A stretch of 64,000 bases of DNA from Candidatus Woesebacteria bacterium GW2011_GWA1_44_23 (GTDB lineage Bacteria; Patescibacteriota; Microgenomatia; UBA8517): positions 21,409-85,408 of the forward strand of contig LCIL01000005.1 of the NCBI GenBank assembly GCA_001001045.1, given 5' to 3'. Made by a program: the position numbers and the translations under genes. Shown in pieces: positions 29,887-50,873 of this stretch. The notes under the pieces were generated by a model that saw only the letters and a list, made by a program, of their open reading frames with translations, made no database searches and was not told the origin of the DNA. Every line of letters begins with the position of its first letter. The first letter of the stretch is position 1.

Positions 29887-29934
29887 CAAAATTGGAGTTA
29901 TAATTCCATCACGGTGGCTATTATATATGAAAGT

Positions 29935-30132
29935 ATGAAAAAAACTATTGGGGAGCTTATCGACGGACTGTCTATTACTAACAACAAGATCTTCCATCTC
30001 GTCGACAAAGTCCAGCGCAACGAGCATACGCGCGAGGATGCAAAAAAAATCCAAGATTTAAATAAGTTAAGAAGTGAGTATATGAATGCTATAAACGAAT
30101 TCTTTAAGGAAAGGATAGATATAAAAGTGTGA
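29935..30132 (+). CDS. Small helical protein (DUF4254-like)
   Basis: MKKTIGELIDGLSITNNKIFH...LNKLRSEYMNAINE; the T-x-GELID-x-LSI pattern is typical of small proteins in glycosylation clusters. Confidence 0.5.
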   Translation: MKKTIGELIDGLSITNNKIFHLVDKVQRNEHTREDAKKIQDLNKLRSEYMNAINEFFKERIDIKV

Positions 30133-30917: not shown

Positions 30918-31018
30918 ATCTCTTGAAGGAATGGGGTATTATACACATTCGGAGAGAAGAGTAATTCCATACCTTCCCTGCTGAGAATCGGGTAAAATGG
31001 TGCGTATAGAATATCCAT

Positions 31019-33372: not shown

Positions 33373-34091
33373 AAAATCTACTGGTTTATGTAAGTAAAGA
33401 TAAAAAGTTTAACCGGGAGTGTGAGACTCTGGCCAAAATCCAAATTGACAACAGTCTTCGTTTAAAGTGGAGAAAAGAAGATATTTTAATGGTCACTAAC
33501 TTTGATTATGAGTATCGGGGAGTTAAAGCTATCGTTGTAGGGGACGAGAATTATTGTGCAGTCAGGCCAAGATCGATTAAAACTTCGATAATCCCCCACT
33601 TAATTGAAAAGGGAATCATAGAAAAAAGGCATATTTACTGGAATCATGATTTTGACGCTTTTCAATTGCATTCTATCAAAGATGAAGAATTGGGACTAGA
33701 CGGTTTTGATGCGGGCTTTACCGACTACGGTTGGAAAAACGACTGGTGTTTGGGAAGTGATTTTATAAAGGAGAGCGCAAAAGACATCTTTGAGTGGCTG
33801 AGGGACGCAATATTTGCTAATTGGGAGGATGAGGAAATACTCGGAAGAATTACGAGAAGGAATACACATAATATCAACTCGAGAATAAAGAAAATGAATA
33901 TAACTTATCAGATTGGAATGAAAAACGTTGATTTTAACTACAAAATAGCTGCAAAACCGCTAAAAGTTCTCCACTTCCATCCGCATAAACCGGGGCTCCT
34001 AGACATCTTCATGTACGGCAAAAACCAAACGGACAAACCCCTTATGCCTAAGGGTTTAATCAATATATTTAATAAACACGGAATAAAGTAA
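33369..34091 (+). CDS. Putative glycosyltransferase/nucleotide-diphospho-sugar transferase
   Basis: DxD motif (WNHDFDAF), late LHFHP motif, position in the GT operon. Confidence 0.55.
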   Translation: MKNLLVYVSKDKKFNRECETLAKIQIDNSLRLKWRKEDILMVTNFDYEYRGVKAIVVGDENYCAVRPRSIKTSIIPHLIEKGIIEKRHIYWNHDFDAFQLHSIKDEELGLDGFDAGFTDYGWKNDWCLGSDFIKESAKDIFEWLRDAIFANWEDEEILGRITRRNTHNINSRIKKMNITYQIGMKNVDFNYKIAAKPLKVLHFHPHKPGLLDIFMYGKNQTDKPLMPKGLINIFNKHGIK

Positions 34092-34260
34092 ATACGTTAT
34101 GAGCAAACCATCAGTGGTGGCAATCTTGCCGAATTTTTAAAAAGTATTAGAAAAAGGTGCGAAAACCTATAGAGATCCATAATATTTGCAATCCAAATAT
34201 TAATTCCCAAACGAATATCCTGGGTATCGGAATGAAGGTCATGGAAATTTTCAGAAATAT

Positions 34261-34944
34261 ATGAATAGAGATTTAACAATAATTTATTACTCATCTAATC
34301 GGGAAGTGCCCGAGTTTGAGACCAGAATTAGGAACAATATTTTAAAAGTTTGTGGCGATTTGCCCATAATAAGCGTTACTCAAAAGCCGATAGACTTTGG
34401 AAAAAATATTGTTGTTGGAGATGTGGGAGCTTCTGGGTTTAACATGTTTAGGCAAGTTCAAATTGCCTGCAAGGAGGCAACAACGAAGTTCGTAGTTTCT
34501 GCTGAAGCGGATTGCTTGTACCCCCCGGACTATTTCACCTTTATTCCCGAGAAGGACAACGTATGTTACCGTAATAAAAATCTATATGTAATGGGTCAAT
34601 ATAGAACCTATTTCTACAAAAAGGAGGAAGGTGCAACGCACGCCCAAGTGGTCGGGCGGGAGTTCTGCTTAAGAACTCTGGATAAACTTTTTGAAGGAGG
34701 TCCGAATTGGTCAATCAAGGAGAGAAATTTCCCCAAAGAGAGGACTCATCAAAAAAAGGAGGATGTTTTTGGCAGTGACGAAATTGAATTCTACGAGACA
34801 AAAAATCCGATTGTACAAATAAAAACAAGCCACAGCATGCGACATTACACTCATTCTGATAGAATACCTCGTGACGAACTTCCCTATTGGGGCAAGGGGG
34901 TAGATTTTAGAAAAAAATATTACGATATCGGATTTAGGCATTAA
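34261..34944 (+). CDS. Putative GT-A-like glycosyltransferase
   Basis: TIIYYS...PIISVTQKPIDFGKNIVV...AEADCLYPPDYF; paralog of 35578..36321. Confidence 0.55.
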   Translation: MNRDLTIIYYSSNREVPEFETRIRNNILKVCGDLPIISVTQKPIDFGKNIVVGDVGASGFNMFRQVQIACKEATTKFVVSAEADCLYPPDYFTFIPEKDNVCYRNKNLYVMGQYRTYFYKKEEGATHAQVVGREFCLRTLDKLFEGGPNWSIKERNFPKERTHQKKEDVFGSDEIEFYETKNPIVQIKTSHSMRHYTHSDRIPRDELPYWGKGVDFRKKYYDIGFRH

Positions 34945-34946
34945 AT

Positions 34947-35576
34947 ATGAAACTAATAGATGCAATTAAAGAGCAGCACGGAAGGCCATTTACAATCCCC
35001 GATTGCTCCCGTGATGAACTCCCCGAATGTTTTAAACAAATGGGCTACAAAACAGGGGCAGAGGTCGGGGTTTATAAGGGGGCGTTTACCGAAAAATTCT
35101 GTAAAGCAGGCTTAAAAATGTATGCCATAGATCCCTGGAAGGCATATCAGGGAGCCGGCCGTACTCAACAGGAACAAGCAAGGCAAGACTTCCTTTACGG
35201 GCATACTCAAAGGACTCTCGCTCCCTATAAAGACTGTACAATAATCAGAAAGACGTCGATGGACGCTCTAAACGACTTCGGCCCGGGAAGCCTGGACTTT
35301 GTCTATTTGGACGGCGATCACCGCTTCCCGTACGTGGCACAAGATATTTATGAATGGAGCGAGAAAGTCAAAAACGGTGGGGTGGTCTCCGGGCATGATT
35401 ATTTCTGCACGGATCCACGGGCAAAAAATGTTTTGTGCCAGGTGGGCGCGATAGTAGATGCTTATGTTAGTGCCTTCGGAATTGAAAATTTTTATGTATT
35501 CGGACGGTCCAAATCACTGGAACTTGAGGCCAAAGATGACAGATATCTAAGCTGGATGTGGATTAAGCCTCTCTGA
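34947..35576 (+). CDS. Class I SAM-dependent methyltransferase (Methyltransf_24-like)
   Basis: GAEVGVYKG, YAIDPW, LDFVYLDGDH, VKNGGVVSGHDY. Confidence 0.85.
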   Translation: MKLIDAIKEQHGRPFTIPDCSRDELPECFKQMGYKTGAEVGVYKGAFTEKFCKAGLKMYAIDPWKAYQGAGRTQQEQARQDFLYGHTQRTLAPYKDCTIIRKTSMDALNDFGPGSLDFVYLDGDHRFPYVAQDIYEWSEKVKNGGVVSGHDYFCTDPRAKNVLCQVGAIVDAYVSAFGIENFYVFGRSKSLELEAKDDRYLSWMWIKPL

Positions 35577-35577
35577 C

Positions 35578-36321
35578 ATGACAAGCACAAAAGGGTGCAT
35601 TTACTACACCGATAACCGCCCGAAGTCTTTTATTTTGGATAAATGCCGTGAGGAAATTTTAAAAGGCTGGAAAGGTCCCCTGGTTTCGGTTTCGCTTCAA
35701 CCGATTGACTTCGGCAAAAATATAGTCTTGGCAGGGGTAGAACGCGGACTCCCGACTATGATCAAACAAATAACAATGGCTTTGGAGGCACTGGATACTG
35801 ACATTGTCTTTTTTCTGGAACATGATGTTTTATATCACCCGTCTCATTTCGATTTCACTCCCCCAAAGGAAGAAATCTATTATTACAATCTCAATAACTG
35901 GCGCTGGGGAATTAAGGAAAATTTTGCTATTACATACGATGGTCTGACCTCCCTTTCTCAACTCGCATGTTACCGAAAAACTGCCCTAAACCATTATAAA
36001 GGAAGACTTAAATACATCATTGACCACGGACTTAACAAGGACCAAAGCCGGGATCCGAGATGGGGACGGGTTATGGGCTACGAGCCCGGAACAAAGCCCA
36101 GGAGGAGGGGTGGTTTTTCCGATGAAAAGTTTGAGATTTGGAAAAGCGATTTTCCAAACATAGATATCCGCCACAGACATACATTTTCCCCGCCGAAATA
36201 CAATTTGGCTGATTTCAAACATCAACCGATAAACTTCCGCCAAGAGAAAATTGAAAATATTCCTTACTGGAATCTGAAAACGTTGCGGGATCAATGGCTG
36301 GATAAATACATAATAAATTAA
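35578..36321 (+). CDS. Putative GT-A-like glycosyltransferase
   Basis: CIYYTDN...VSVSLQPIDFGKNIV...LEHDVLYHPSHF; paralog of 34261..34944. Confidence 0.55.
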   Translation: MTSTKGCIYYTDNRPKSFILDKCREEILKGWKGPLVSVSLQPIDFGKNIVLAGVERGLPTMIKQITMALEALDTDIVFFLEHDVLYHPSHFDFTPPKEEIYYYNLNNWRWGIKENFAITYDGLTSLSQLACYRKTALNHYKGRLKYIIDHGLNKDQSRDPRWGRVMGYEPGTKPRRRGGFSDEKFEIWKSDFPNIDIRHRHTFSPPKYNLADFKHQPINFRQEKIENIPYWNLKTLRDQWLDKYIIN

Positions 36322-36406
36322 ATGAATAAAGGCATGGTTCTCCACACCGCTTTTCCCGGCTTTGATAATGCCTAAGTATGCTGTATTATTGCCTCACGCG
36401 AAACCT

Positions 36407-37474
36407 ATGGCTGATCTTTCAATATTAATACCGGCACGGAATGAAATATTTCTGGCCCGCACGATAGAAGACCTCCTGGCAAACATCGAGGCTGATACCG
36501 AGATCATCGCTGTTTTGGACGGGGTACCCGCCAACCCTCCGATTCCCAAAAATGAAAGAGTAAATGTAATCTCCCTTTCCGAAAGTATCGGACAAAGGGC
36601 GGCAACTAATCTTGCCTGTAAATTAAGCCGCGCCAAATATGTAATGAAGGTAGACGCACACTGCGGATTTGATAAAGGTTTTGACCGAAAAATGCTCGAG
36701 GCATTTAAAATTACCGGAGACAACGTTACGATGGTCCCAATTATGCGTAACCTCTGGGCATATGACTGGAAATGCTACCACTGCGGCTGGAAAAAATACC
36801 AAGGCCCCACTCCGGAAAAGTGTGGGCAGTGCGGTAAGGGAGACAAAATTAGAAGAAAGATGCTTTGGATCGGAAAACATAACCCTCAAAGTACTTCTTA
36901 CTGCTTTGACTCGTCTCCCCATTTCCAGTACTTCGAGGATTGGAAACACCGGCCGCAATACGAAAAAGACAAGAGAGAAACGGGACTGACTGAAACAATG
37001 AGCCTGCAGGGCAGCTGCTGGATGTTGACCCGCGAAAAATACTGGGACCTTAATGTTTGCGAAGAAGCATTTGGGGGTTGGGGTTCTCAGGGAATTGAAG
37101 TTGCGGTTAAAACCTGGCTTTCCGGAGGTAGAGTTATTGTCAATCATAAAACTTGGTATGCACATATGTTTAGAACCCAAGGGGGCGACTTCGGGTTCCC
37201 CTACCCGATTTCAGGAAAGGATCAGGAAAAGGCGAAAAGATATGCAAGGGATTTGTTTTTCAACAATAACTGGAATAAGCAAATTCGCCCTCTTTCCTGG
37301 CTCATCGAAAAATTCTGGCCGGTGAAGGGGTGGGCAGAAGAAGACTTGACCAAGCTTAAAACAAACACTTTCAGATTTAAAGAGAAAGCGGAGCCAAAAC
37401 CTGCCGAGAGTGAGCCCGTTACAAGTGATCCGGTAAGAAACCATCAGACGGGTGTTATTTACTCCGCCACTTAA
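36407..37474 (+). CDS. GT-A fold glycosyltransferase (GT2/GT27-like) with zinc-ribbon insertion
   Basis: DLSILIPARNE, VDAHC, CYHC...CGQC insert, QGSCW, GWGSQGIEVAVKTWLSGG...YAHMFR. Start placed at MADLS. Confidence 0.85.
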   Translation: MADLSILIPARNEIFLARTIEDLLANIEADTEIIAVLDGVPANPPIPKNERVNVISLSESIGQRAATNLACKLSRAKYVMKVDAHCGFDKGFDRKMLEAFKITGDNVTMVPIMRNLWAYDWKCYHCGWKKYQGPTPEKCGQCGKGDKIRRKMLWIGKHNPQSTSYCFDSSPHFQYFEDWKHRPQYEKDKRETGLTETMSLQGSCWMLTREKYWDLNVCEEAFGGWGSQGIEVAVKTWLSGGRVIVNHKTWYAHMFRTQGGDFGFPYPISGKDQEKAKRYARDLFFNNNWNKQIRPLSWLIEKFWPVKGWAEEDLTKLKTNTFRFKEKAEPKPAESEPVTSDPVRNHQTGVIYSAT

Positions 37475-37648: not shown

Positions 37649-40600
37649 ATGGCAGTAACATACGTCAAAGCTAGTACCCCCAATACAGATGCGGCGGGAG
37701 CCTTTACAGTAACAGGTGCAGCTCCTGCTGTTGCTGGGAATATTATCATCCTTCAAATTTTTCAGGACGGTACTACTGACGGGGCGGTAACTCAAACCAG
37801 TGCTACCAATATTACTGCTCTAGATGGTACGGCTAATACATGGACTGCTATTACCGAACAGTCGGTAGGAGCATCAGACGAAGGTAGACAGTATCTATGG
37901 GTAGGGCGTTCAAGCGGAAGGTCTACTCCCACATTTACAGGCGGCAACACAACTTCAGAGGATCTTTACCTCAGGATGTATGAGTTTAGCGGAGTAGATG
38001 CTAATGCCACGACTTTATCTGGGATTCTTGAAAACGGTACTGCAGGAACTGTAGCTAACGGCACTGGAACATCTGCGTCCGTTTCTGATACAAGCGTTCA
38101 GACACTGGGAGATGGCCGGCTCGCATTAAATTTTATCGCTGTAAACGATGATCCCCAGGCAGCAGAACTAGCCGCAATGACTGGTGAAACAGGGGGGGAT
38201 TGGGCTTATCCTGTTGCTGCGTGGGGTTCTAGTTCTGGCACTGACGGTACAATCGCTTTAGTTACAGCTTCTATCCCTTCTTCGGGAACAATTGATGGAG
38301 GCTCAGATGCCATAACTTCAGCTGCTTGGGGGGTGATAGGCTTTGCCCTTAAACCTGAATTTACTCCAACAGTAGCTTTAAGTACCCCTGCAGATGACGC
38401 GACAGGAGTAAGTACCACCCCAGCCCTAGTTTTTACAGGAACAGATGCTAACTCAGATGAAGTGGAATATGAGGTACAGGTAGATACAGTAAACACTTTT
38501 GATTCTTCGTCAGCCACTATGGCTAGCAATAGTGAAAGTACTTATGACCATGATTACATTGATAATTATAATTCAGTACCTCCTTCATGGTATGGTCAGA
38601 CATTTACCCCACCTTTTATGGGACCCGTCACTTCAGTTAAGTTTTATTTAAAAGGTTCCGATGGTTTAACGGGTAACATGCCAGTTAGATTGTATGCCAC
38701 AGACACCTCTGGTACTCCAGTAGGTGAAATATTAGCCACATCAGCTAATTTGGATTTATCTAGTCTTTCAACTTCTGCTTATGAACTAGTAGAGTTTATA
38801 TTTAGTTCCCCATACACAGTTGAGTCTGGGGTTCTGTATGCATTAACTTTAGAAAATCTTAGTTCCTCTAACCTATATGTTGGTGCAGATATTAGTTCTC
38901 CTGCTTATACAAATGGTACTGCAATTAGTATGAGTCCCGGTGGTTACCTGACTGTTGCTAGTGATTTATGTTTTTATGTTTATAGTGGAGGTTCTCTTCT
39001 TGACATCTTCTCCCTCGCCGATAACGATGCTAACTGGGCAGGCACAGGAGCACCTAATCCCTTTCCTTCAGGAAATGAAATAACCTATACAGTACCGGCA
39101 GGAAGTGCTTTAGCCGCAGGAACTACTTATTACTGGAGAGTACGAGCTATTGACCCTCTAGGAAGTAATGCCTGGGGATCTTGGAGTCCTGGGGCACATA
39201 GTGGATATAGTGAGTTTACAACACAGGCAACAGGTTCATTTTCGCCTTCGATTTCTCCATCTGTAAGTCCAAGTGCGTCTCCTTCGGTATCCCCCTCAGT
39301 CAGTCCGTCTATCTCGCCTTCTGTAAGTCCCTCAGTTAGCCCTAGTGTTTCCCCAAGTCTATCTCCCAGCGTTTCTCCTTCTGCATCTGTTTCGCCATCA
39401 ATCTCACCCAGTGTTAGTCCTTCGGAAAGCCCATCAGTATCGCCCTCGGTCTCGCCTTCAGTTTCACCCTCTGCATCCATATCTCCATCGACCTCACCCA
39501 GTGTTAGTCCATCAGTAAGTCCCAGTGCAAGTGCTAGCCCATCGGTCTCACCATCGGCTAGTCCGTCGGTGTCTCCCAGCGTTTCTCCTTCCGTAAGTCC
39601 GTCGGCTTCTGTTAGTCCGTCTATGAGTCCGAGTGTATCGCCCTCTGTAAGTCCCTCTGCATCAGTTTCACCATCTATCAGTCCTTCTGTGTCTCCCTCC
39701 GTCAGCCCCAGTGTCAGCCCCAGTGTCTCACCCAGCGCAAGTATCTCTCCAAGTGTTAGTCCCAGCGTGTCGCCAAGTGCTTCTCCTTCTATTTCACCTT
39801 CCGTTTCTCCATCAGCTTCTATATCTCCGTCAGTTTCGGAAAGTGTAAGTCCATCCGTTAGCCCAAGTGCGAGTGTAAGCCCGTCGGAATCACCGTCAGT
39901 TAGTCCATCTGTATCTCCAAGCTTTAGCCCTTCGATCTCAGCCAGTATATCGCCAAGCATATCTCCGAGTGTGTCCCCTTCGGCTTCCGTATCCCCATCG
40001 GTTTCCCCCAGTATCAGCCCTTCTGTCTCCCCAAGTGCCAGCCCAAGTCAAAGCCCATCGGCATCAATTAGTCCTTCCGTAAGTCTATCCATTTCTCCTT
40101 CTTTCTCTCCGTCCGCATCCATTAGTCCCAGTGTCTCTCCCAGCATATCGCCCTCGATCAGTCCATCAGTATCCCCTTCGGAGTCTCCCTCTGCATCAGC
40201 TAGCCCATCTATTAGCCCTAGCGTATCTCCTTCTGTCTCGCCCAGTGCTTCTGTGTCCCCTTCGGTAAGTCCGTCTGCAAGTGTTTCGCCTTCTGTCTCC
40301 CCATCGGCCAGTCCATCTGTCTCTCCGAGTCAAAGTCCATCGATTAGCCCATCAATTAGTCCGAGTATATCTCCTTCCGTTTCGCCTTCAGCGTCGATTA
40401 GTCCGTCAATTAGTCAATCAGCAAGTCCGTCAGTGTCACCGAGTGCGAGTATTAGCCCTTCACTAAGTCCAAGCATGTCTCCTTCTGTTTCTCCTTCTGG
40501 GTCAATCTCACCCTCAATAAGTGCTTCCGTTTCGCCTTCTGTCTCCCCTTCAGCATCTATTTCTCCGTCAATAAGTCCTTCTATTAGTCCGTCTGTTTCC

Positions 40601-42538
40601 CCATCGACTAGTCCATCTGTCTCTCCGAGTCAAAGTCCATCGGCTTCGATTTCCCCGTCTGTCTCTCCAAGCGTTTCTCCTTCAATAAGTCCATCGGTAA
40701 GTCCAAGTTTGTCTCCTTCGGTAAGTCCTTCAGCTTCGGTTTCACCAAGTATCTCGCCAAGTTTGTCTCCTTCGGTTTCCCCCAGCGCAAGTATTTCACC
40801 TTCCATTTCTCCAAGCGTTTCTCCTTCGATAACTATATCATCGTCTATCAGTCCAAGTGTGTCACCCAGTGTCAGTCCATCGGTAAGTCCTTCGGTATCA
40901 TCTTCTCAAAGCCCTTCCGCATCAGTATCCCCATCAGTTTCACTGTCCGTAAGCCCAAGTGTATCTGCGAGCGTTTCCCCGTCGGTTTCCCCTTCAGCCG
41001 GATCAAGCGAGTCTCCATCACTTTCACCAAGTATAAGCCCATCAATTAGCCCCTCAGTTTCCCCATCTGTCAGTCCTTCGATTTCCCCTAGTGTTTCGCC
41101 ATCAATCAGTCCTTCTGCTTCGATTTCTCTATCTGTAAGCCCGTCGGTTTCACCATCAGTCAGTCCGTCGATAAGCGCTTCCGTTTCACCAAGCCCCAGT
41201 GTTTCTCCTTCGACTAGTGCGAGCATTTCTCCTTCCATTAGCCCATCAGTCAGTCTGTCGGTGTCACCCTCAATTAGTCCAAGTGTCTCTCCTTCGGTTT
41301 CACCAAGTATCTCGCCAAGTTTGTCTCCTTCGGTTTCCCCCAGCGCAAGTATTTCACCTTCCATTTCTCCAAGCGTTTCTCCTTCGATAATCAGCCCTTC
41401 GGTGTCACCAAGTATAAGCCCATCCATTTCGCCCAGCATCTCACCTTCTCAAAGTCCGTCAGTGTCCGTATCACCTAGCCAATCTCCCTCCGCCTCTCTG
41501 TCACCGTCAGTATCGCCCAGTGCAAGTATTAGCCCTTCAATAAGTCCAAGTGTCTCACCTTCGGTTTCACCTTCTGGATCAATCTCACCCTCAGTAAGCC
41601 CTTCTGTTTCACCTTCTGTCTCTCCTTCAGAATCTATTTCCCCGTCAATAAGCCCATCCCGCAGCCCGTCAGTTTCTCCATCCATCAGCCCGTCAGCAAG
41701 TCCGTCTGTGTCACCAAGCGCAAGTATTTCGCTGTCTATTAGCCTGAGTGCTTCTCCATCTGTTTCCGCCTCGATATCGCCGTCTGTTTCACCTTCTGTA
41801 AGTCTCAGCGTTTCTCCTTCGATAAGCCAATCGGTAAGTCCAAGTTTGTCTCCTTCGGTAAGTCCTTCAGCTTCGGTTTCACCAAGCGCAGGCTTTTCAA
41901 TTTCACCCAGCGTTTCACCGTCTCAAAGCCCTTCGGCTGCGGCTCCCTCAAGTCTCAGTCCATCCGTGTCTCCATCAATTTCTCCTTCAATTGCCATTTC
42001 AACCTCACTATCTCCAAGTGTGTCCCCTTCTATCTCAGCATCCCCATCAATACCGTCTTCAATATCTCTTTCTGTATCACCAAGTGCGAGTCTAAGTCCA
42101 AGCCTGAGCCCATCGGTCGGTCCTAGCGGGAGTCCGCCAGCTTTGCCCAGCACCAGTGCCTCTTTCTCTGTTAGCCCAAGTGCCTCACCGTCACTGTCTG
42201 CTAGTGCTTCTCCTACTGAATCAGCATCACCTTCACCTGCCACGGTGGTATATTCTGCCAGCGCCAGCCCGAGTGTTTCTCCGTCGATCAGCCCCTCTCC
42301 CGCCCGCTATGCATCACCAGAAAAGCCCAGCTTTTATTATGACTCCGCTATTGTTCTCCGGGATGTGGCAAATCGTGATGTTAACTTAAGTGGGCTTCAA
42401 GATACCATACCTTCATGGAACAATGCAGGCCGGCCGAAGAATTTAAAACCCGCCACATTAGGTTTCAATATTGAGACAAAGGATCTCGAATTATATGACG
42501 GATCATTATGGCATAGGCTGCCAATGAAAAAAGTATAG
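37649..42538 (+). CDS. Mucin-like Ser/Pro-repeat protein 1 (1629 aa)
   Basis: Strong RBS (AGGAGG). ~530-aa beta-rich N-terminus with an FN3-like TTYYWRVRAID motif, ~1000 aa of (SPSV/SPSI/SPSA)n, C-terminal PSWNNAGRP...GFNIET...LELYDG..W. No N-terminal signal peptide. Confidence 0.85.
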   Translation: MAVTYVKASTPNTDAAGAFTVTGAAPAVAGNIIILQIFQDGTTDGAVTQTSATNITALDGTANTWTAITEQSVGASDEGRQYLWVGRSSGRSTPTFTGGNTTSEDLYLRMYEFSGVDANATTLSGILENGTAGTVANGTGTSASVSDTSVQTLGDGRLALNFIAVNDDPQAAELAAMTGETGGDWAYPVAAWGSSSGTDGTIALVTASIPSSGTIDGGSDAITSAAWGVIGFALKPEFTPTVALSTPADDATGVSTTPALVFTGTDANSDEVEYEVQVDTVNTFDSSSATMASNSESTYDHDYIDNYNSVPPSWYGQTFTPPFMGPVTSVKFYLKGSDGLTGNMPVRLYATDTSGTPVGEILATSANLDLSSLSTSAYELVEFIFSSPYTVESGVLYALTLENLSSSNLYVGADISSPAYTNGTAISMSPGGYLTVASDLCFYVYSGGSLLDIFSLADNDANWAGTGAPNPFPSGNEITYTVPAGSALAAGTTYYWRVRAIDPLGSNAWGSWSPGAHSGYSEFTTQATGSFSPSISPSVSPSASPSVSPSVSPSISPSVSPSVSPSVSPSLSPSVSPSASVSPSISPSVSPSESPSVSPSVSPSVSPSASISPSTSPSVSPSVSPSASASPSVSPSASPSVSPSVSPSVSPSASVSPSMSPSVSPSVSPSASVSPSISPSVSPSVSPSVSPSVSPSASISPSVSPSVSPSASPSISPSVSPSASISPSVSESVSPSVSPSASVSPSESPSVSPSVSPSFSPSISASISPSISPSVSPSASVSPSVSPSISPSVSPSASPSQSPSASISPSVSLSISPSFSPSASISPSVSPSISPSISPSVSPSESPSASASPSISPSVSPSVSPSASVSPSVSPSASVSPSVSPSASPSVSPSQSPSISPSISPSISPSVSPSASISPSISQSASPSVSPSASISPSLSPSMSPSVSPSGSISPSISASVSPSVSPSASISPSISPSISPSVSPSTSPSVSPSQSPSASISPSVSPSVSPSISPSVSPSLSPSVSPSASVSPSISPSLSPSVSPSASISPSISPSVSPSITISSSISPSVSPSVSPSVSPSVSSSQSPSASVSPSVSLSVSPSVSASVSPSVSPSAGSSESPSLSPSISPSISPSVSPSVSPSISPSVSPSISPSASISLSVSPSVSPSVSPSISASVSPSPSVSPSTSASISPSISPSVSLSVSPSISPSVSPSVSPSISPSLSPSVSPSASISPSISPSVSPSIISPSVSPSISPSISPSISPSQSPSVSVSPSQSPSASLSPSVSPSASISPSISPSVSPSVSPSGSISPSVSPSVSPSVSPSESISPSISPSRSPSVSPSISPSASPSVSPSASISLSISLSASPSVSASISPSVSPSVSLSVSPSISQSVSPSLSPSVSPSASVSPSAGFSISPSVSPSQSPSAAAPSSLSPSVSPSISPSIAISTSLSPSVSPSISASPSIPSSISLSVSPSASLSPSLSPSVGPSGSPPALPSTSASFSVSPSASPSLSASASPTESASPSPATVVYSASASPSVSPSISPSPARYASPEKPSFYYDSAIVLRDVANRDVNLSGLQDTIPSWNNAGRPKNLKPATLGFNIETKDLELYDGSLWHRLPMKKV
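39235..42310 (+). repeat. Degenerate 12-bp-period coding repeat (Ser-Pro-Ser-X)
   Basis: Tetrapeptide periodicity with highly varied synonymous codons. Confidence 0.9.
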
Positions 42539-42817
42539 TATCTTGCAATATTTTTTGACTATAAGCGTATTCTTAAAGCCGTATCTAACTACCCATAGTT
42601 CCTTATAAGCTTCTGGTACTCTCCTACTCCTATAACCATTACCGATCTCCAATATATTAACTAAATCATGATTTTACTCATTTGTTGCATTTTGCGGGCT
42701 TCCATGAATTATAAGGGGAATTTCCTAGATAGCTTCCTGAATAATCGGATAGTTAAGAAGGCTCAGTCTACTAAAAGACTCTTGTAAATCATAATCGCTT
42801 TATACATACTTGTAATC

Positions 42818-42845
42818 TACTTGCTATCTTCAGTGATAGCAAGTA
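42818..42845. promoter_or_regulatory. Perfect 11-bp inverted repeat upstream of second RAYT-like gene
   Basis: TACTTGCTATC-ttcagt-GATAGCAAGTA, ending 10 nt before GTG 42856. Confidence 0.6.
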
Positions 42846-42855
42846 ACTTAAAACT

Positions 42856-43902
42856 GTGACTGCCCATGATTATCAAGCCAAACTAAATGGGGTACTATAT
42901 TCCCATGTTTATCGTGATCTCGCATCTGAAAAAATTTTCATTGATAACGAAGATTATCAGGCATTCGTAAACTTCTTAAATGAATACTTGTCTGACAAAA
43001 ATGTTGATGATAGTAAAAAAATATTTACAATAAGGGGGCATACTTACCAAGGAGTCCCCCGTTTACCTAAAAACTTCTCTAAACAGATTGAGCTTTTAGC
43101 CTATAAGTTAGAGCCAAATCGTTTTGACTTCCTGATAAGAGAAAATGTTCCTGGGACTACTCAAAAGTTCATAAGAGCCGTATCAACAAGGTACGCCCTA
43201 TACTACAACAAGAAACATCATCGAACCGGTTCCCTATTCAAGGATACTTACAAACTGGAAAGAATCAGCGATCCTGCACTACTACCAGGTCTAATTCGTA
43301 GCCTCCACAGTAACTTTAGTAAAAAAGACGGTGTGCCCGATCATGCTTACTCTTCATGCCCTGAATATCTTGGTCAAAGAGCATCGAATTGGATCAATTC
43401 GCAGGCTATACTTTCTAATGAAGGACTGGGTGATCAAAAGCTGTACCCGGAAAAGGGTAAACCGGAAACCGGTGTACGTGTCACCCGTTATCGCCCAAGA
43501 TCCAAAGCCAGGGTACCAGAAATAATATTATCCATTGCGATTCTGGCTATGCTAATAGCTCAAAGTATATTAAGAATCGAAACTTCTTCAACATCAAAAG
43601 CTTCATACTCGCCTCCTTCATACGCTACGGTTCTGGGTGACAAAAGGGAAGCAACGGAAGACGAAAATATAAAAACCGTAGAAGTGAATCAAGGGAAGGT
43701 TTTAATTGATACCGTTGATAATTTGGAAAGTGTAGATATCTATCGGGACGCTTTGTTATCGTCACTTAAAATTGGCGAGGCTAAGGATAATGACATCTTT
43801 GAGCTTGTTTCTGAAAGCCCGGGCTGGTATCAAGTAAAACTTATTAATGGGTCAACTGGCTATGTCTCGTCAGAATATTCGGAAATAATAACGAATTATT
43901 AA
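42856..43902 (+). CDS. Degenerate RAYT/Y1 domain fused to TM and SH3 domain (paralog of 26257..27417)
   Basis: IFIDNEDY...LLAYKLEPNRFDF (HUH lost)...YYNKKHHRTGSLF...IRSLHSN (Tyr lost); TM IILSIAILAMLIA; SH3 VDIYRD...GWYQVKLINGSTGYVS. Confidence 0.8.
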   Translation: MTAHDYQAKLNGVLYSHVYRDLASEKIFIDNEDYQAFVNFLNEYLSDKNVDDSKKIFTIRGHTYQGVPRLPKNFSKQIELLAYKLEPNRFDFLIRENVPGTTQKFIRAVSTRYALYYNKKHHRTGSLFKDTYKLERISDPALLPGLIRSLHSNFSKKDGVPDHAYSSCPEYLGQRASNWINSQAILSNEGLGDQKLYPEKGKPETGVRVTRYRPRSKARVPEIILSIAILAMLIAQSILRIETSSTSKASYSPPSYATVLGDKREATEDENIKTVEVNQGKVLIDTVDNLESVDIYRDALLSSLKIGEAKDNDIFELVSESPGWYQVKLINGSTGYVSSEYSEIITNY

Positions 43903-43903
43903 A

Positions 43904-44572
43904 ATGATCAAAAAAATTATGTTATATGGCAGTTTCTTGGCTGCCAGCTCTGCTGATACGGCCGTTTTCCTTGCGTCTAATGATTATTTTCATCTTGCGC
44001 TTGCCATCCTTCTTTATTTCCCGTTAATTTATATTGCTTTTATAATATTTCCTCGCAGAACCGAATTTGCTGGGAATGTCCCAATCCACCAGGGAAATGG
44101 AATAGAGCCAAACCTGCTAACCACTAACAAGATCGGACAATTTTCCGGCTCCCCTTCCCCTTCGACCGACAGCGTCGAAGTTTCCGACATCAATAAACGG
44201 GTGTTTCTCAAAATGATTGGGGCTACGGGTTTATCCTTCTTCATTTCTTCTCTTATTTCAAAAAGGTTGCCTTCTCATGTTTTCGGGCAATCTGAAGAAC
44301 CAACAACAACCTCTATCATAGATTCCACAGGAGAGGCAGTAGACCCTGCCAAGCACCACCCCACTGACAGCTATAAAATTTCCGAGGTCGACTATGGAAT
44401 TAATACCTATTATGGCTTTATTGATGAAAATGATGGCTGGTTCATTATGGAACAAGATACAAATGCCGGAACCTACCGTTATATAAAAGGCAATGCGAAT
44501 TTTCCTGATAATTGGAGGAGCCGCGAAAGTCTTACATATGACTATTACAATAAAATTTTTGCCAAATCGTGA
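43904..44572 (+). CDS. Membrane protein with internal Tat-like signal (paralog of 27419..28009)
   Basis: DINKRVFLKMIGATGLSFFISSLI; C-terminal YKISEVD...YYGF...WFIM...YRY...W..R..L.YDYY. Confidence 0.75.
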   Translation: MIKKIMLYGSFLAASSADTAVFLASNDYFHLALAILLYFPLIYIAFIIFPRRTEFAGNVPIHQGNGIEPNLLTTNKIGQFSGSPSPSTDSVEVSDINKRVFLKMIGATGLSFFISSLISKRLPSHVFGQSEEPTTTSIIDSTGEAVDPAKHHPTDSYKISEVDYGINTYYGFIDENDGWFIMEQDTNAGTYRYIKGNANFPDNWRSRESLTYDYYNKIFAKS

Positions 44573-44574
44573 TC

Positions 44575-44859
44575 TTAATACGTGTTTACAATCAATAGGA
44601 AGTTGAATAGTAAGTGAAGCATGATTTGGACGACGATAGACTTGGGATCGAAAGCGTACCCCACTAGGAATACTCCCGGTGTTTCGATGGAAGCCATGTA
44701 CAAAGCAACAGCCAGTGTGGCTAGGACCAAACCGTGATTACCCACCCACTGGTCCTGCTCAAAGCCGAACAAAGAATCGATGGCAAACGAGTTGAAAGCT
44801 AGCCTGCCGTACCACAGAAAAGCGGTATTTTTATGGCGCTTCAGAAAACCACTTCGCAA
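44575..44859 (-). pseudogene. Possible fragment of a membrane protein (CPBP/CAAX-protease-like C-terminus)
   Basis: Hydrophobic ORF ending SIVVQIMLHLLFNFLL (H-x3-N motif); no convincing start. Confidence 0.25.
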
Positions 44860-44887
44860 ATGTCAATTGATGTTTGTAAACTCACAA

Positions 44888-44962
44888 AATCTTATAGTTG
44901 GAACGCACAAAAATGTATATAATGGCTTAGCCGTTTGAAACGGTTGTGTTGTTGTATAAATG
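44888..44962 (+). promoter_or_regulatory. Conserved promoter/leader of SP-repeat gene 2
   Basis: AATCTTATAGTT-N12-AATGTATATAATGGCTTAGCCGTTTGAAACGGTTGTGTTGTTGTATA, matching 37497..37574. Confidence 0.75.
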
Positions 44963-45050
44963 ATACTTATTATTGTTAATAGGCCGCATGCGAATAAAAA
45001 TATATTTTAATGCTGTAATTTATGTAGGTTTTACGTTCAAGTAATCTAAA

Positions 45051-48000
45051 ATGGCAACACGGTTGTATCTACCATCAACGGGGACTCCCGCGGTAACCCC
45101 CGCTTATAGTGCGTCTTGGACCGGAACTGACGAGGCGTCAAGGCTAAGTGCTGTAACAACAAAAATCTCTTCGGCGATGGCCTCTGCTTCGACCACAACC
45201 GATACCAGTAAAGTCCCGGATGCTTATCTCATGAGGCAGTACGTTTCTGATCCTTTGACCACTCAAACAATTTTAGCCCAAACAGTCAAATGGCAAATTA
45301 GAGCCTCTGAGACAAACCTATCAAACAATATTTTTACCGCAATTACTATTAGAAGTTGGGACGGTGCTTCTACTTTTCAAACACTGCTTGCTTTAACCTA
45401 TGACGGTACGGAGTTAACAACGTCTCTGGTCAACAGACAATTTAGCGCCACAACCACAGAGGTAAGTATTACTTCCGGAGACAGGTTAATTATTGAAATC
45501 GGAGTAGGTGGTGACCCTACACCCTCCGGATCCGACTTTCATCACGGATCCTTGCGTATTGGAGACGCATCATCAACGGACCTGCCAGAAAATGATACCG
45601 ATACAAACGATTACAATCCCTGGGTCGAGTTTGCAAATACTTTGACATTCGCTGTGGCCGGCCCTTCGTTTTCGCCATCGGTTTCTCCTTCAGTTTCTCC
45701 TTCGGTTTCTCCTTCTATTTCCCCTAGTATTTCTCCGTCAGTTTCTCCCAGTATTTCTCCTTCTATTTCACCTTCAATTTCACCATCTGTTTCCCCTAGT
45801 ATTTCTCCGTCAGTTTCTCCCAGTATTTCTCCTTCTATTTCACCTTCAATTTCACCATCTGCCTCGATATCCCCTTCTATTAGTCCAAGTGAGTCTCCTT
45901 CGGTTTCACCATCAATCAGCCCGTCAATTTCACCATCTGAATCACCATCGACAAGTCCTTCGGTAAGTCCCAGTGCTTCACCGTCGGTCTCACCGTCAGA
46001 AAGTCCATCCGAAAGCCCATCAGAATCTCCTTCGGTTTCTCCGTCAATTTCTCCCAGCGCTTCGCCTTCGGTATCACCATCCGAATCTCCGTCAGCGAGT
46101 CCTTCTATATCCCCTTCAATATCACCCAGTCCGAGTATGTCTCCTTCAACCTCACCAAGCACATCTCCTTCAATAAGCCCTTCCGAATCACCATCGGCTA
46201 GCCCTTCAATTAGCCCTAGCTTATCTCCATCTGTTTCTCCATCAGAAAGTCCATCGGAGAGCCCGTCCGTTTCTCCAAGTGTCTCACCGTCTGTTTCACC
46301 TTCCATTGCCTCCAGCTTTTCACCTTCTATCTCACCTTCGGAAAGCCCGTCGGTGTCCCCGTCGGTGTCCCCGTCCCTTTCCCCGAGTGCCTCCCCAAGC
46401 ATTAGTCCGTCTGTTTCTCCTTCAGCTTCGATTTCACCATCTTATTCACCGTCTGTTTCACCTTCAGTCTCTCCATCGCAATTAGCCCTTCCATAAGCCC
46501 CTCCCTTTCTCCCTCGGTTAGTCCGAGTCTGTCTCCATCGGTCTCCCCGAGTGCCTCCCCAAGCATTAGTCCGTCTGTTTCTCCTTCAGCTTCGATTTCA
46601 CCATCTATGAGCCCCTCCGAATCACCATCTACGTCTCCTTCCACGTCACCGTCGATTTCGCCTTCGGTTTCACCAAGCCCGAGTATTAGTCCCTCAGTAA
46701 GTCCGAGTTTTTCTCCGTCAGTTTCATCGTCAATCTCACCAAGCATTTCACCCTCCGTCTCGCCGTCACCGTCGATATCTCCTTCAATAAGTCCGTCCGT
46801 TTCACCTTCCCCCGGCTCCAGTTTTTCTCCATCCATAAGTCCGTCAATCTCGCCTTCGATTAGCTCTAGTGTTTCGCCGTCAGTCAGCCCGTCGGTATCA
46901 CCATCTCCCTCCGTCTCGCCTTCGGTTTCGCCAAGCCCGAGTATTAGTCCCTCAATAAGCCCGAGTGTCTCTCCGTCAGTCTCTCCCAGTGTAAGTTCAT
47001 CGGTTTCTCCCTCAGTATCGCCATCGGCGTCGATCTCGCCATCTATATCTCCAAGCAAGTCGCCATCAGTGTCTCCAAGTGTATCCGTCAGTATCTCCCC
47101 TTCGGTTTCGCCTTCACCATCCATCTCGCCTTCAGTAAGCCCATCGGTAAGTGCGTCGATCTCTCCTTCTATCAGTTCCAGTGTCTCGCCTTCTGTCTCC
47201 CCAAGTCCTAGCATGTCCTCATCGATAAGCCCGTCGGCGTCCCCGTCTGTTAGTCCGTCCGTTTCCTCATCTGTTAGTCCGTCTATTTCCCCGTCACCGT
47301 CAGCATCACCTTCGAATAGCCCATCGGTAAGTCCATCGATCTCTCCTTCAGTAAGTCAAAGCATTTCCCTTTCGGTTTCTCCTTCCCCATCCGTCTCGCC
47401 TTCGGTAAGCCCATCGGTTTCCCTGTCTGCATCGCCGTCCGGATCGCCGTCTGTTTCACCATCGGTTTCTCCCTCACTGTCTGTTTCGCCATCCGTCTCC
47501 CCGAGCCCAAGTGCTTCACCATCCGTAAGTGCCTCGATCTCTCCTTCAATAAGTCCGTCCGTTTCGCCTTCCCCCGGCTCCAGTTATTCTCCTTCCATAA
47601 GTCCGTCAATCTCGCCTTCAATTAGCCCGAGTCTGTCTCCATCGGTCTCCCCGAGTGCCTCCCCAAGCATTAGTCCGTCTGTTTCTCCTTCAGCTTCGAT
47701 TTCACCATCTTATTCACCGTCTGTTTCACCTTCAGTCTCTCCATCGGTGTTTCGGCATCCATTAGCCCATCTACCTCGCCCTCGGTTTCCATATCTCCGT
47801 CTATTTCACCCAGTAAATCTCCGTCTATTTCACCAAGTGTTTCTCCCAGTATTTCCGCCTCTATTTCTCCAAGTCCTAGTATTTCGCCTTCAATTAGCCC
47901 AAGTGTGTCTCTTTCGGTGTCTCCCAGTGTTAGCCTGTCAATTTCTCCCTCCGTCTCGCCATCACCTTCCCTGTCCCCGTCCTTTAGTCCAAGCCAATCT

Positions 48001-49365
48001 CCTTCGGTTAGTCCGAGTGTTTCCCCGTCAGTCAGCCCGTCGGTATCACCATCTCCTTCGATCTCGCCATCGGTGTCACCAAGCGCGAGTATCAGCCCTT
48101 CAATAAGTCCGAGTATTTCTCCGTCAGTTTCTCCCAGCGTAAGTTCATCGGTTTCTCCCTCGGTATCGCCCTCACCGTCGATTTCACCTTCAATGAGCCC
48201 ATCGGTAAGTCCATCAATCTCTCCTTCAATAAGTCAAAGCATTTCCCCTTCGGTTTCGCCCTCTATTGGTGTAAGTATTTCTCCATCGGTTAGTCCCAGC
48301 GTCTCAGTATCCAAATCCCCGAGTATTTCACCGTCAAAGTCTCCGTCCTTAAGTCCGTCGGTTTCACCCTCGCCTTCCCGTTCGCCCTCTCTTAGCCCAA
48401 GTGAGTCCGCTTCTGTTTCACCCTCTGCTTCACTTTCGCCGTCGGAATCCGCTTCGGTAAGTCCTTCCTTCTCACCATCGGCTTCCATCTCACCCTCAAG
48501 AAGCCCTTCTATTTCACCTTCTATAAGTCCCAGTATTTCACCCTCAAAGTCTCCATCAGCAAGCCCGTCCACTTCTCCCTCTGCTTCAATCTCGCCATCT
48601 TTGAGCAAGTCTGCCTCACCTTCAAGATCGCCTTCAGTTTCCCCGTCAGGATCGGCGTCAATTTCACCTTCATCAAGCTCATCGGTCTCACCTTCGGTAT
48701 CAATCTCGCCAAGTGTTTCTCCTTCGGTTTCTCCAAGCCCCAGTCTGTCACCTTCTGTAAGTCCAAGTAAATCGCCCTCTCTTTCTCCGTCAATCTCACC
48801 AAGCTTTTCTCCGTCGGTTTCTATCTCCCCTTCATTAAGCGCATCGGTCTCGCCAAGCCCGAGCGTTTCTCCTTCCCCTTCCCTCTCCCTGTCCATTTCA
48901 CCAAGCGTTTCTCCGTCGGCTTCTATATCACCTTCGGTTTCGCCACCAAATTCAATTTCACCTTCCATTTCCCCCTCAAGCGCTCCTGTTGCGAGCGCCT
49001 CGCCTTCGGTTTCCCCGTCCCCATCAGCTGCCGGGGTGGCTTCTTCTGTCTCGCCGTCACCTTCTCCGGCGGTAATTGTTTACTCGGCCAGTGCCAGCCC
49101 ATCAACCTCTTTCAGTCCTTCCATCCCCCCAGTTCCGGAAGAGCCGATACTGTATAAAAATCCAACTATTTTCAGAAACAAAAGAGTATCTGTAGGTGTG
49201 AGCTATGTTCCAAGCGGACAGCCAAGACTCCCGTCATGGAACACGGCGGGAAGACCCAAAAACCCAAGGGCAAGAGTCGTCGGATTTAATTTCGCAACTT
49301 CCAGTTTAGAATATTGGAATGGATCAAAGTGGTTAATACTACCTATGAAGAGGATCAAAACTTAG
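45051..49365 (+). CDS. Mucin-like Ser/Pro-repeat protein 2 (~1440 aa; frame breaks near 46480 and 47748)
   Basis: ORFs 45051, 46607 and 47905 join into a ~200-aa N-terminal beta domain, (SPSX)n, and C-terminal LPSWNTAGRP...GFNFAT..LEYWNG..W. No signal peptide. Confidence 0.8.
45664..49130 (+). repeat. Degenerate (Ser-Pro-Ser-X) coding repeat
   Basis: Same periodicity as gene 1; includes an exact ~95-nt duplication (about 46383-46478 and 47651-47746). Confidence 0.9.
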
Positions 49366-49376
49366 CAGGTTGGGCA

Positions 49377-49401
49377 TCTTGTAAGGAGAGACCTTTCAAG
49401 G
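49377..49401. repeat. REP-like imperfect palindrome, right copy (inverted relative to 26220..26244)
   Basis: TCTTGTAAGGAGAGACCTTTCAAGG; stem CTTG-x-AAGG / CCTT-x-CAAG. Confidence 0.55.
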
Positions 49402-49486
49402 AGGCTAACAGGAAGATTAACCATTAACCTATCAAATTTTTACTATTGATATGGGGTGGTAAGATTAATATAATAATTTAAACAAT

Positions 49487-49681
49487 ATGGCAATTTCTTC
49501 ACCGGTACTTGTTGAGATAGGTCAGGGTTTGTCTTTAATGGTCGGTCTCCCGACGATCGCATCTTGGAATTCTCAGAAGCGTCCGCAAAAAGCAAAAAGG
49601 GGTACGTTCGGATTTAACACCCAGACAAAAAGTTTGGAATATTGGGACGGGTCGGGGTGGTACACTGCCAAGCTTAGTTAG
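49487..49681 (+). CDS. Small protein consisting of the SP-protein C-terminal domain
   Basis: IASWNSQKRPQKAKRGTFGFNTQTKSLEYWDGSGW aligns with both SP-protein C-termini. Confidence 0.75.
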   Translation: MAISSPVLVEIGQGLSLMVGLPTIASWNSQKRPQKAKRGTFGFNTQTKSLEYWDGSGWYTAKLS

Positions 49682-49731: not shown

Positions 49732-49935
49732 ATGCTTAATTTCATTAAAAATATCGGTCCCGTAGAGTGGGTGGTTATTCTTCTTATTCTGATAATAATT
49801 TTCGGCCGCAAAATACTTGTAAGCCTTGGCCGTGCCAGTGGTGAAACAGTTAGGGAACTGAAAAGCGTTAAGAAAAGCTTGACCGACGCTGTTGAAGGAA
49901 CAGAGGACAAGCCCGAGAAGAAGGAGGTGTCTTAA
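49732..49935 (+). CDS. tatA: TatA/TatB-family translocase subunit
   Basis: IGPVEWVVILLILIIIFG hinge, then amphipathic LGRASGETVRELK. Confidence 0.8.
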   Translation: MLNFIKNIGPVEWVVILLILIIIFGRKILVSLGRASGETVRELKSVKKSLTDAVEGTEDKPEKKEVS

Positions 49936-49941
49936 AAATTT

Positions 49942-50103
49942 ATGTTTCAATCGATAGGGACAACAGAGTGGATAATAATTGCCGTCTTGGTACTTTTACT
50001 CTTCGGAGGAAAAAAGATTCCGGAATTTTTCAAAGGCATCGGTGAGGCCGTCAGGGAGTTTAAGAAAGCTTCAAAAGATACCGACGAGAAAAAAGAAGGA
50101 TAA
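49942..50103 (+). CDS. tatA: TatA translocase subunit (53 aa, below ORF-track cutoff)
   Basis: [53 protein letters not shown]; RBS AAGGAGGT at 49921. Confidence 0.92.
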
Positions 50104-50123: not shown

Positions 50124-50873
50124 GTGGAAAACATCAAGGCTCTCGGATCCCCCGAAGTTAAAGAAGCGCTAGCCAAGTACTCTCACTATTTGGTTGAAGC
50201 CCGCAAAAAGATCATATTTACGCTTATTGTTTTCGTTCTGGCAACTTTCGTGGGTTTTTTCTTTTATGAACAGATAATAAAATTTCTGGTTGATTTCCTG
50301 AGTCTTACCGGAATCAACATAGTTTTCACTTCCCCATTCCAGTTTATCAATCTTGCAATCAGTTGCGGCGTGGCAACCGGCATAATATTTTCCTTTCCGC
50401 TTCTTGTCTTCCAAATCATGTCCTTTTTGAAGCCGGCTCTCAGAGGAAAAGAATATAAAATGATCATGAGGCTCCTGCCCTTTTCCCTTATTCTTTTCGC
50501 TTTGGGGTTTTCATTCGGGGTTTTTATTATGAAATGGCAGGTCCAGATATTTTTAAGCAGGGCAGTTTCAATCGGCATCGGCAACATCCTGGACATAAGT
50601 AAGCTTTTATCGGTAGTTCTTTTAACCTCCGCTCTGATGGGGATAGGTTTCCAGTTTCCTATCCTGTTGCTTCTTCTTCTCAGAATCGGTCTAATTACCA
50701 ACGGTCAACTTCGTAAAATCCGTAAATGGGTTTATCTCGGTTCTTTCGTGTTCGCGCTGCTGCTGCCGCCGGATTCAATTTTGGCAGACGTACTTTTATC
50801 GCTGCCTTTGATAATCCTTTACGAAATTACCCTGATTCTAGATAGAACTTTTGACGGTCACCGTTTAACCTAA
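50124..50873 (+). CDS. tatC: TatC translocase subunit
   Basis: Six TMs; HYLVEARKK, FTSPFQF, FLKPALRGKE, GIGFQFP, LLPPDS, PLIILYEIT; follows two tatA genes. Confidence 0.88.
   Translation: MENIKALGSPEVKEALAKYSHYLVEARKKIIFTLIVFVLATFVGFFFYEQIIKFLVDFLSLTGINIVFTSPFQFINLAISCGVATGIIFSFPLLVFQIMSFLKPALRGKEYKMIMRLLPFSLILFALGFSFGVFIMKWQVQIFLSRAVSIGIGNILDISKLLSVVLLTSALMGIGFQFPILLLLLLRIGLITNGQLRKIRKWVYLGSFVFALLLPPDSILADVLLSLPLIILYEITLILDRTFDGHRLT

Follow-up and report, generated by a model that had tools for sequence, protein, structure and literature searches.

A C-terminal domain shared by two giant repeat proteins and a small gene before tatA in a Woesebacteria genome: a candidate handle for Tat export

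Why would the same short domain close two giant proteins without export signals and stand a third time alone, as a small gene directly before tatA? This question is raised by the window analysed here, a stretch of 64,000 nucleotides (nt) of contig LCIL01000005.1 from Candidatus Woesebacteria bacterium GW2011_GWA1_44_23 (source assembly 596 kb, 94% complete). Between 26 and 51 kb the window carries an island in the order SH3b membrane protein, RR membrane protein, glycosyl/methyltransferase cluster, SP protein 1, second SH3b-RR pair, SP protein 2, free gene, tatA, tatA, tatC, where SP stands for Ser/Pro repeats and RR for a motif of the twin-arginine translocation (Tat) type. The answer that we propose, and that we regard as evenly balanced, is that the domain is a trimer-type knob serving as a handle for hitchhiker export of the SP proteins through Tat on the RR protein as carrier, with the free copy as a co-assembling filler or adaptor. 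The features on which the question turns are the following (positions in the window).

42410..42538, plus strand: first fused copy of the shared domain, with a basic tail, at the end of SP protein 1
49231..49365, plus strand: second fused copy, with a basic tail, at the end of open reading frame (ORF) 47905-49365
49446..49474, plus strand: sigma70-like promoter match (11/12), directly before the free gene
49487..49681, plus strand: free copy of 64 amino acids (aa), with a conserved N-terminal beta-hairpin and a trimerisation-type core
49732..49935, plus strand: tatA/B-family gene 1 (Pfam TatA_B_E)
49942..50103, plus strand: tatA/B-family gene 2 (Pfam TatA_B_E)
50124..50873, plus strand: tatC of an island-specific clade, with Y, F or I at the H12 position (Pfam TatC; tree)

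A sequence-only reading of the locus had proposed the domain at the ends of both SP proteins and as the stand-alone gene before tatA, and all three copies were found in place. They share the motif RP..P..G..GFN....LE.WDG..W, with 14 invariant positions and 34-38% identity in alignment, and in a search of the 10,488 six-frame ORFs of the genome each retrieves its two fellows, at E 7e-8 to 1e-12. Nothing else among these ORFs falls below E 0.2, and the three copies are the only ones in the assembly. Chance similarity was rejected. The shared core is about 41 aa long, to which the free copy adds a conserved N-terminal hairpin, while the fused copies end in a basic tail (a mean of 2.8 K/R in the last eight residues versus 0.4 in free copies).

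Codon comparison indicates that the free gene is real and under purifying selection, since a close relative differs from it by 18 synonymous changes and one non-synonymous change. It has 93 homologues, mostly of 64-68 aa and with 52-76% identity. Over 47 matched loci the core is conserved at 62% among free and 61% among fused copies, but residues 6-21, the hairpin, have a mean identity of 67% among free copies versus 19% among fused ones. In a domain tree made by a quick method from 62 columns, of which only the fused clade is used here and not the placement of phage rows, 49 fused rows lie on one side of a branch with 98% support in the Shimodaira-Hasegawa-like approximate likelihood ratio test. 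This branch and the free-only residues 6-21 argue that the free gene is an old paralogue and not a local duplicate. Sigma70-like matches of at least 9 precede 40 of 50 free genes, versus 12% of shuffles; in the controls the same threshold is reached by 18/48 tatA genes and by 24% of the long genes of the source genome (n=321). A variant arrangement is seen at L032:6503-7057 (genome G110) and in P0111, P0113 and P0116, where a protein of 170-185 aa ending in a free-type domain replaces the 65-aa gene.

How constant is the link to tat outside this genome? Named relatives of the window genes belong to Microgenomates-group Patescibacteria, and the metagenome runs containing window DNA come from groundwater and soil. 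From metagenomes we kept the best 80 of 137 loci, 56 of them non-redundant, of which 47 had 400 nt upstream and 49 had 350 nt downstream. A fused copy lies upstream of the free gene in 45/47, tatA follows within 300 nt in 44/49 and some tat gene in 47/49; at the two remaining loci an SH3b-RR pair follows instead. Among 201 genomes of the class, strong matches to the domain occur in 11, the RR-C domain of the RR proteins in 20, TatC in 20 and the island glycosyltransferase family 2 gene (GT2) at 36362 in 12, all of the latter RR-positive. All 11 domain carriers have RR-C, ten have the GT2 and eight an adjacent tatC. RR-C and TatC occur together in 15 of the 20 RR-C genomes, and 15 of the 16 genomes with an island-clade TatC have RR-C. 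The claim that the domain goes with tat and RR genes elsewhere has therefore survived for this subfamily. In the phylum sample (n=401) RR-C was found in six genomes, one of them outside the class (G260) and equipped with tatC, SH3b proteins and a giant protein. Island contigs also occur in Gammaproteobacteria bins (L003, L004, L005); their TatCs are nested among those of Microgenomates type, and the contigs are possibly mis-binned.

The TatCs of RR loci form one clade (support 100/100), apart from four TatCs without RR; a fifth RR-less TatC stands at a contig end. Numbered by alignment to PDB 9DZZ, island TatCs keep E15, F94, P97 and E103, whereas H12 is replaced by Y, F or I in 18/18, all five being positions that we take to matter for TatC function. 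Two sets of positions are left out of account because gaps disturbed the column mapping, namely E. coli D211 and E103 in the four non-island TatCs. This change of H12 stands alongside a putative substrate with mostly KR in its motif, a possible case of co-adaptation.

The remaining parts of the island, which would supply passengers, carrier and modification, are these.

26257..27417, plus strand: Y1-transposase-like N-terminus, one membrane helix and SH3b, copy 1 (Pfam SH3_3, weak Y1_Tnp; helix by hydropathy)
27419..28009, plus strand: RR membrane protein 2, candidate Tat carrier/anchor, with N-terminal hydrophobic helices, internal D-R-R-x-F-L-K, a weak last helix and the 67-aa RR-C
29101..37474, plus strand: glycosyltransferase/methyltransferase cluster (Pfam)
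37649..42538, plus strand: SP protein 1, 1629 aa, with a 526-aa head, about 1030 aa of Ser/Pro repeats (49% S, 21% P) and the C-terminal domain
42856..43902, plus strand: Y1-like protein with membrane helix and SH3b, copy 2 (Pfam and hydropathy)
43904..44572, plus strand: RR membrane protein 1 with the RR-C domain and a K-R-x-F-L-K variant
45051..49365, plus strand: SP protein 2, three ORFs in the assembly (45051-46496, 46607-48106 and 47905-49365), likely one gene

Neither SP protein has a helix at the hydrophobicity threshold (maximum KD19 1.57 and 0.97), in agreement with the earlier statement that both lack a signal peptide and transmembrane segment. No RR motif was found in the N-termini of 19 SP proteins from the window and related loci. 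The reading of SP protein 2 as a single gene rests on three facts: an exact 99-bp repeat ends at each of the two ORF breaks; in 4/4 metagenome runs, contigs lead into both downstream segments from other copies of the repeat, in frame by coordinate arithmetic; and in a relative with 93% identity the frame stays open for 702 codons as far as the C-terminus. The split is thus likely an assembly artefact, and real frameshifts were rejected on this account. Further assembly frameshifts are suggested by the leucyl-tRNA synthetase ORF (705 aa versus about 840 in relatives) and the arginyl-tRNA synthetase ORF, which look truncated (window 4523-6640 and 330-1829). On the minus strand of 39130-48968, long antisense ORFs rich in Gly, Glu and Asp mirror the SP repeats and are likely shadows of the repeat codons.

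The heads of the SP proteins had been expected to be swappable, and the comparison bears this out: of 19 heads collected, 18 were compared, and only 6 of 153 pairs are similar. The head of SP protein 1 is 72% identical over 237 aa to an SP protein of a viral contig (L199), and that of SP protein 2 is 49% identical over 203 aa to another (L175); the neighbours of both viral proteins match virion-structure families, those of L175 weakly. Pfam gave almost no matches on the SP heads or on giants without the domain.

The two RR genes are the only matches to a Tat motif with helix among 1,181 ORFs of the genome. Throughout their 121 homologues R-x-F-x-K is invariant, the last helix is less hydrophobic than the N-terminal ones and a basic residue follows it. 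At the first motif position 111 of them have K and ten have R; an AxA site is absent in 105. Two helices, or four in some homologues, precede the motif, as judged by hydropathy and inspection only. A weak last helix followed by positive charges belongs to the features of Sec-to-Tat handover (PMC5449189; here and below, cited papers are drawn on for the parts consulted). The actinobacterial Rieske protein Sco2149, a dual Sec/Tat protein described in the same source, shares with the RR proteins the weak last helix and the basic residues and, by the helix count just given, the even helix number; the RR proteins differ in being mostly KR and in having a small, phage-type C-domain without a cofactor. 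RR-C is modelled as a folded domain of 67 aa (predicted local distance difference test, pLDDT, 91), and the model has no obvious cofactor site. It matched no Pfam family, nothing in PHROGs under E 0.06, and among solved folds only generic beta-meanders (best Z 5.5, no clear match), but it resembles phage proteins of 72-89 aa (template modelling score, TM, 0.84-0.90). A partner of RR-C would explain its need for Tat, since RR-C itself has neither a Pfam family nor an obvious cofactor site. SH3b protein copy 1 lies directly upstream of an RR gene, and SH3b-type genes adjoin RR genes in related loci too. A dCache-domain membrane protein without a signalling domain (window 27994-29007, minus strand) also adjoins an RR gene, here and in G001, G191 and G119.

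What does the shared domain look like? The free copy is modelled with pLDDT 88 as an N-terminal hairpin and a three-strand core. The nearest named Atlas cluster is PF26696 PTL_trimer (score 0.93, 38% of members), and the domain matches phrog_1325 in PHROGs at E 6e-7. Its top structural match is the C-terminal end of CBA120 TSP3 (5W6F, residues 583-622; Z 4.7, rmsd 1.1, 38 aa aligned), followed by the Mtd N-terminus (residues 5-50, Z 4.4), the trimerisation domains of collagen XV/XVIII (Z 3.0-3.1) and many tailspikes. The resemblance to phage-fibre trimerisation modules suggested by the motif thus finds support, at low Z. This model-based likeness to phage-fibre and collagen XV-XVIII domains is a coherent lead, not proof, from which trimer formation is predicted. 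Other searches were less telling: Pfam gave no match for the three window copies, and PF26696 did not appear in scans of the library used; precomputed Pfam assignments among the 93 homologues place PF26696 on three and PF24059 on two, and PF24059 (DUF7360) has a below-cut-off match in 29 of 92 members. A sequence search of the PDB with the domain alignment gave nothing under E 0.26, and Foldseek against the PDB gave no match at E under 0.001. The closest known domains are PTL_trimer/DUF7360, 5W6F, BPP-1 Mtd 1YU0, K1 lyase 7W1C and collagen XV/XVIII 3N3F and 3HON, whose likeness to the window domain lies in the predicted small beta fold and the motif given above. The phage K1 lyase's N-terminal domain is collagen XVIII-like and trimeric (PMC8822698); the part of PMC6517402 consulted says nothing of the TSP3 C-terminal module. 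In contrast to all these domains, the window domain closes a cellular mucin-like protein at its very C-terminus and also occurs as a separate gene, which has a conserved hairpin to itself and a fixed place before tatA.

The wider domain family has 1,250 representatives, many with repeats, and is common in phage fibres, often in internal positions. It is also internal in Sec-type anchored giant fibres of the Candidate Phyla Radiation (CPR), with eight weak matches in the 201 class genomes; no tat genes were found near the six of these eight that were inspected. Therefore the domain family as such is not a Tat tag. The window itself contains at 14202-23980 a giant phage-fibre-like surface gene in two ORFs, whose relatives elsewhere have a weak internal copy of the shared domain.

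It is useful to trace the same cassette in phages. Relatives of the island GT2 occur in 90 viral contigs, of which 80 were kept; these show 50-74% identity. SP-repeat proteins are encoded at 60 of the 80 loci, the domain at two, an RR-C-like gene at two (four with a looser profile) and tatA or tatC at none. RR-C is encoded at 13 viral loci, usually among head/tail genes and before fibre-like genes; a 110-aa ORF of L191 is treated as a weak relative (hhalign probability 7.6%, profile E 0.023). In the phage record G201 the order is portal, major head, soluble RR-C, GT2, methyltransferase, GT2, an SP protein closed by the domain (E 3.5e-17) and a tail gene, so that the cassette lies in a head module, with no Tat. 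Because the variety is much wider in phages, transfer from phage to cell is the probable direction. The viral contigs (L127-L206) represent many uncultured phages with glycosyl/methyltransferase clusters and with SP-repeat proteins that reach 1,900 aa and have a wide range of C-terminal modules, and these phages are candidates for mucin-like glycosylated virions. As in the virion glycosylation cassettes of mycobacteriophages, glycosyltransferases stand beside structural genes; the host group is different, the targets would be SP-repeat fibres, and the cassette would also have been domesticated in cells. The cluster of the window probably modifies the SP repeats in the cytoplasm.

The export route that we propose starts from what is observed, namely a domain C-terminal on SP proteins and a free copy kept as a separately conserved gene tied to tatA-tatA-tatC. 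The domain would form trimers, as its predicted fold suggests, and the glycosyl/methyltransferase cluster would glycosylate the SP stalk. To judge from motif and topology, the RR protein would be inserted by Sec with its even number of N-terminal helices and then by Tat with its last helix; because the last helix would be handed to Tat, RR-C must be folded or complexed before export. RR-C would bind the C-terminal module, either by itself or through the free copy. The free copy, which has a conserved hairpin and a promoter match to itself, would probably assemble together with the fused copies, as filler or adaptor. With the RR protein as their vehicle, the SP proteins would then travel through the neighbouring Tat translocase and remain attached to the cell surface. 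If the cassette came from phages, fusion of RR-C to a Tat anchor would redirect fibres to the cell surface. A complex prediction with three free copies and RR-C scored 0.00, which weighs neither for nor against binding.

Each part of this route can be set beside a known system. Tat hitchhiking is established for heterodimers of hydrogenase and formate dehydrogenase, where, as here, a signal-less protein accompanies a Tat-motif protein (PMC10924467). The SP proteins, which have no signal of their own, resemble such passengers; a cofactor-binding exported domain was not found in RR-C, with its 67 aa, lack of a Pfam match and likeness to small phage proteins. The present case also differs in that no cofactor is involved, the passengers would be giant, repetitive, likely glycosylated and variable, and a dedicated translocase lies in the same island. 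Streptococcal and staphylococcal serine-rich repeat proteins (SRRPs) are giant proteins with linked GtfA/B and the dedicated accessory Sec system SecA2/SecY2, and the island shares with them giant Ser-rich repeats, linked glycosyltransferases and a linked translocase. Unlike SRRPs, however, the window proteins lack a signal peptide and LPxTG, have Ser-Pro repeats, an N-terminal head, a C-terminal trimer-type knob and phage relatives, and are linked to Tat rather than SecA2/Y2. Neither the hydrophobic signal nor the C-terminal anchor of SRRP type was found in the SP sequences, and the 46 window proteins scanned include no secA2, secY2 or asp product, with tatA-tatA-tatC present instead.

The domain is one of several C-terminal ends found in such islands. 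A second island type (L053-L058, L063; G194, G002, G140, G049, G036, G112) has an RR protein, tatC and up to six or seven tatA-family genes, together with large SH3b-ended membrane proteins and giants whose conserved C-terminal motif has no Pfam match. A third short C-terminus is shared by a cellular SP protein (L121:253-6141, G170) and a phage SP protein (L183:11613-14144), both at loci with RR-C. The CTD2 profile matched none of six phage genes downstream of RR-C. Since the sister islands differ in this end, the constant core consists of an SH3b protein, an RR protein, Tat and a giant that lacks a signal and has a conserved C-terminus. We rejected a general role of the domain as the tag for Tat, on the seven Tat/RR genomes without it, six of which have another C-terminus.

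A number of observations weigh against export by Tat through this knob. Z scores of the fold do not exceed 4.7, below the reliable range of the tool and low for a 40-aa domain. The RR proteins have KR instead of RR in 111/121, and lysine substitution in the twin-arginine motif is poorly tolerated (PMC7317946). Tat tolerates hydrophilic unstructured parts, but the cases cited are small unfolded or linker-bearing (PMC13673990), and three chains of 1,400-1,600 aa joined in a trimer would greatly exceed the Tat substrates cited in that source. Neither tatC nor tatA was seen in the fragmented assemblies of three of the 11 carriers (G006, G042, G196) or in the RR genomes G170 and G173; the islands of these five mostly reach contig ends (G006 also lacks the core GT2), so that absence of tat is shown neither way. 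In G001 the fused copy and tat are present and the free gene is absent. Seven of the 15 genomes with Tat and RR lack the domain, a count read with the caution that the genomes are related and thus not independent; in six of the seven, the C-terminus of signal-less Thr-rich giants is a different conserved motif. Fisher tests are given no weight here, since the kinship of the genomes makes them overstate. Pairing is not tight in phages, where domain and RR-C were found each in 2/80 GT loci, and of five RR-C phage records searched whole only G201 has the domain.

Do other explanations fit these facts better? The one that survives best, though we consider it unlikely, is that the domain is only a trimerisation or folding knob from a phage fibre, that the SP proteins exit otherwise (by a channel, vesicles or lysis), and that Tat does no more than bring the RR protein to the outside, possibly to catch them there later. 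It agrees with a family widespread in phage fibres, often repeated and internal, and internal in CPR giants without tat, as well as with the size problem, the seven Tat+RR genomes without the domain and the three carriers in which no tat was found. Yet it leaves unexplained why the free gene is fixed before tatA (44/49), why a 67-aa domain without known cofactor should need Tat, and why reduced genomes retain Tat almost only with the island (15/16).

It is rather improbable, in our estimate, that recognition by the RR protein is directed at the N-terminal head or at some other protein of the island, with the fused domain trimerising the chain and the free copy acting as a non-exported cytoplasmic chaperone or Tat accessory. 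RR-C is indeed conserved across loci with three different C-terminal modules, free and fused copies form separate clades with different tails and charge (as a hint only, fused cores are basic in 47/47 and RR-C acidic in 110/121), and the free gene has its own promoter match with tat. The heads, however, would be a poor target for a conserved binder because they are mostly unrelated, whereas the C-termini are conserved within an island type.

We give very little credence to SP proteins that never reach the surface and serve as a phage-interference or virion-decorating element, acting in the cytoplasm on infecting phage with the tat genes as mere neighbours. Near-identical GT genes and heads in phage structural modules and the lack of signal peptides would suit it, but every cellular RR-C is held at the membrane, following a Tat-type motif and next to an SH3b membrane protein, and tatA/tatC occur in 0/80 phage loci versus tat in 47/49 cellular ones. 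The view of the free copy as the decaying remnant of an SP gene that was truncated, with merely historical linkage, is largely refuted and scarcely credible, for although one free copy is truncated (G196) and three carriers have none, pseudogene status was rejected on the 18:1 codon changes, the constant length (64-68 aa in most of 93), the conserved hairpin, the separate clade and the promoter match.

What would Tat hitchhiker export by the C-terminal knob mean for these bacteria? Known host-contact secretion systems were not detected in Patescibacteria, which encode giant surface-type proteins, and TatA/TatC were noted in Microgenomatia without a substrate, according to the part of PMC9166423 consulted. 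In the literature searched, with subscription papers and supplements outside its scope, we found no description of the subfamily, the free gene, the Tat-linked island or the export route; relative to it the fold is already known, and the subfamily, the stand-alone gene and the Tat-linked island are new. Tentatively, at a little under an even chance, we suggest a dedicated secretion-and-display pathway of Patescibacteria built from phage head-fibre parts, in which a membrane carrier inserted by Sec/Tat and bearing an adaptor domain of phage type would capture signal-less giant glycoprotein fibres by interchangeable C-terminal knobs, either the trimer domain together with its free adaptor copy or the other ends seen in sister islands, and pull them through a co-adapted island Tat (KR in the motif, a changed TatC and as many as six or seven TatA copies), with heads traded with phages.

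The island offers a Tat substrate and an explanation for the retention of Tat in roughly a tenth of the class, together with a testable export route for cytoplasmically glycosylated signal-less fibres. If the proposal is true, Tat hitchhiking would extend from cofactor enzymes to mucin-like giants, and a virion fibre cassette would have been turned into a cell-surface system with a portable tag of 45 aa. Even on a weaker reading, the locus holds an uncharacterised cassette shared by phages and cells and a new stand-alone family.

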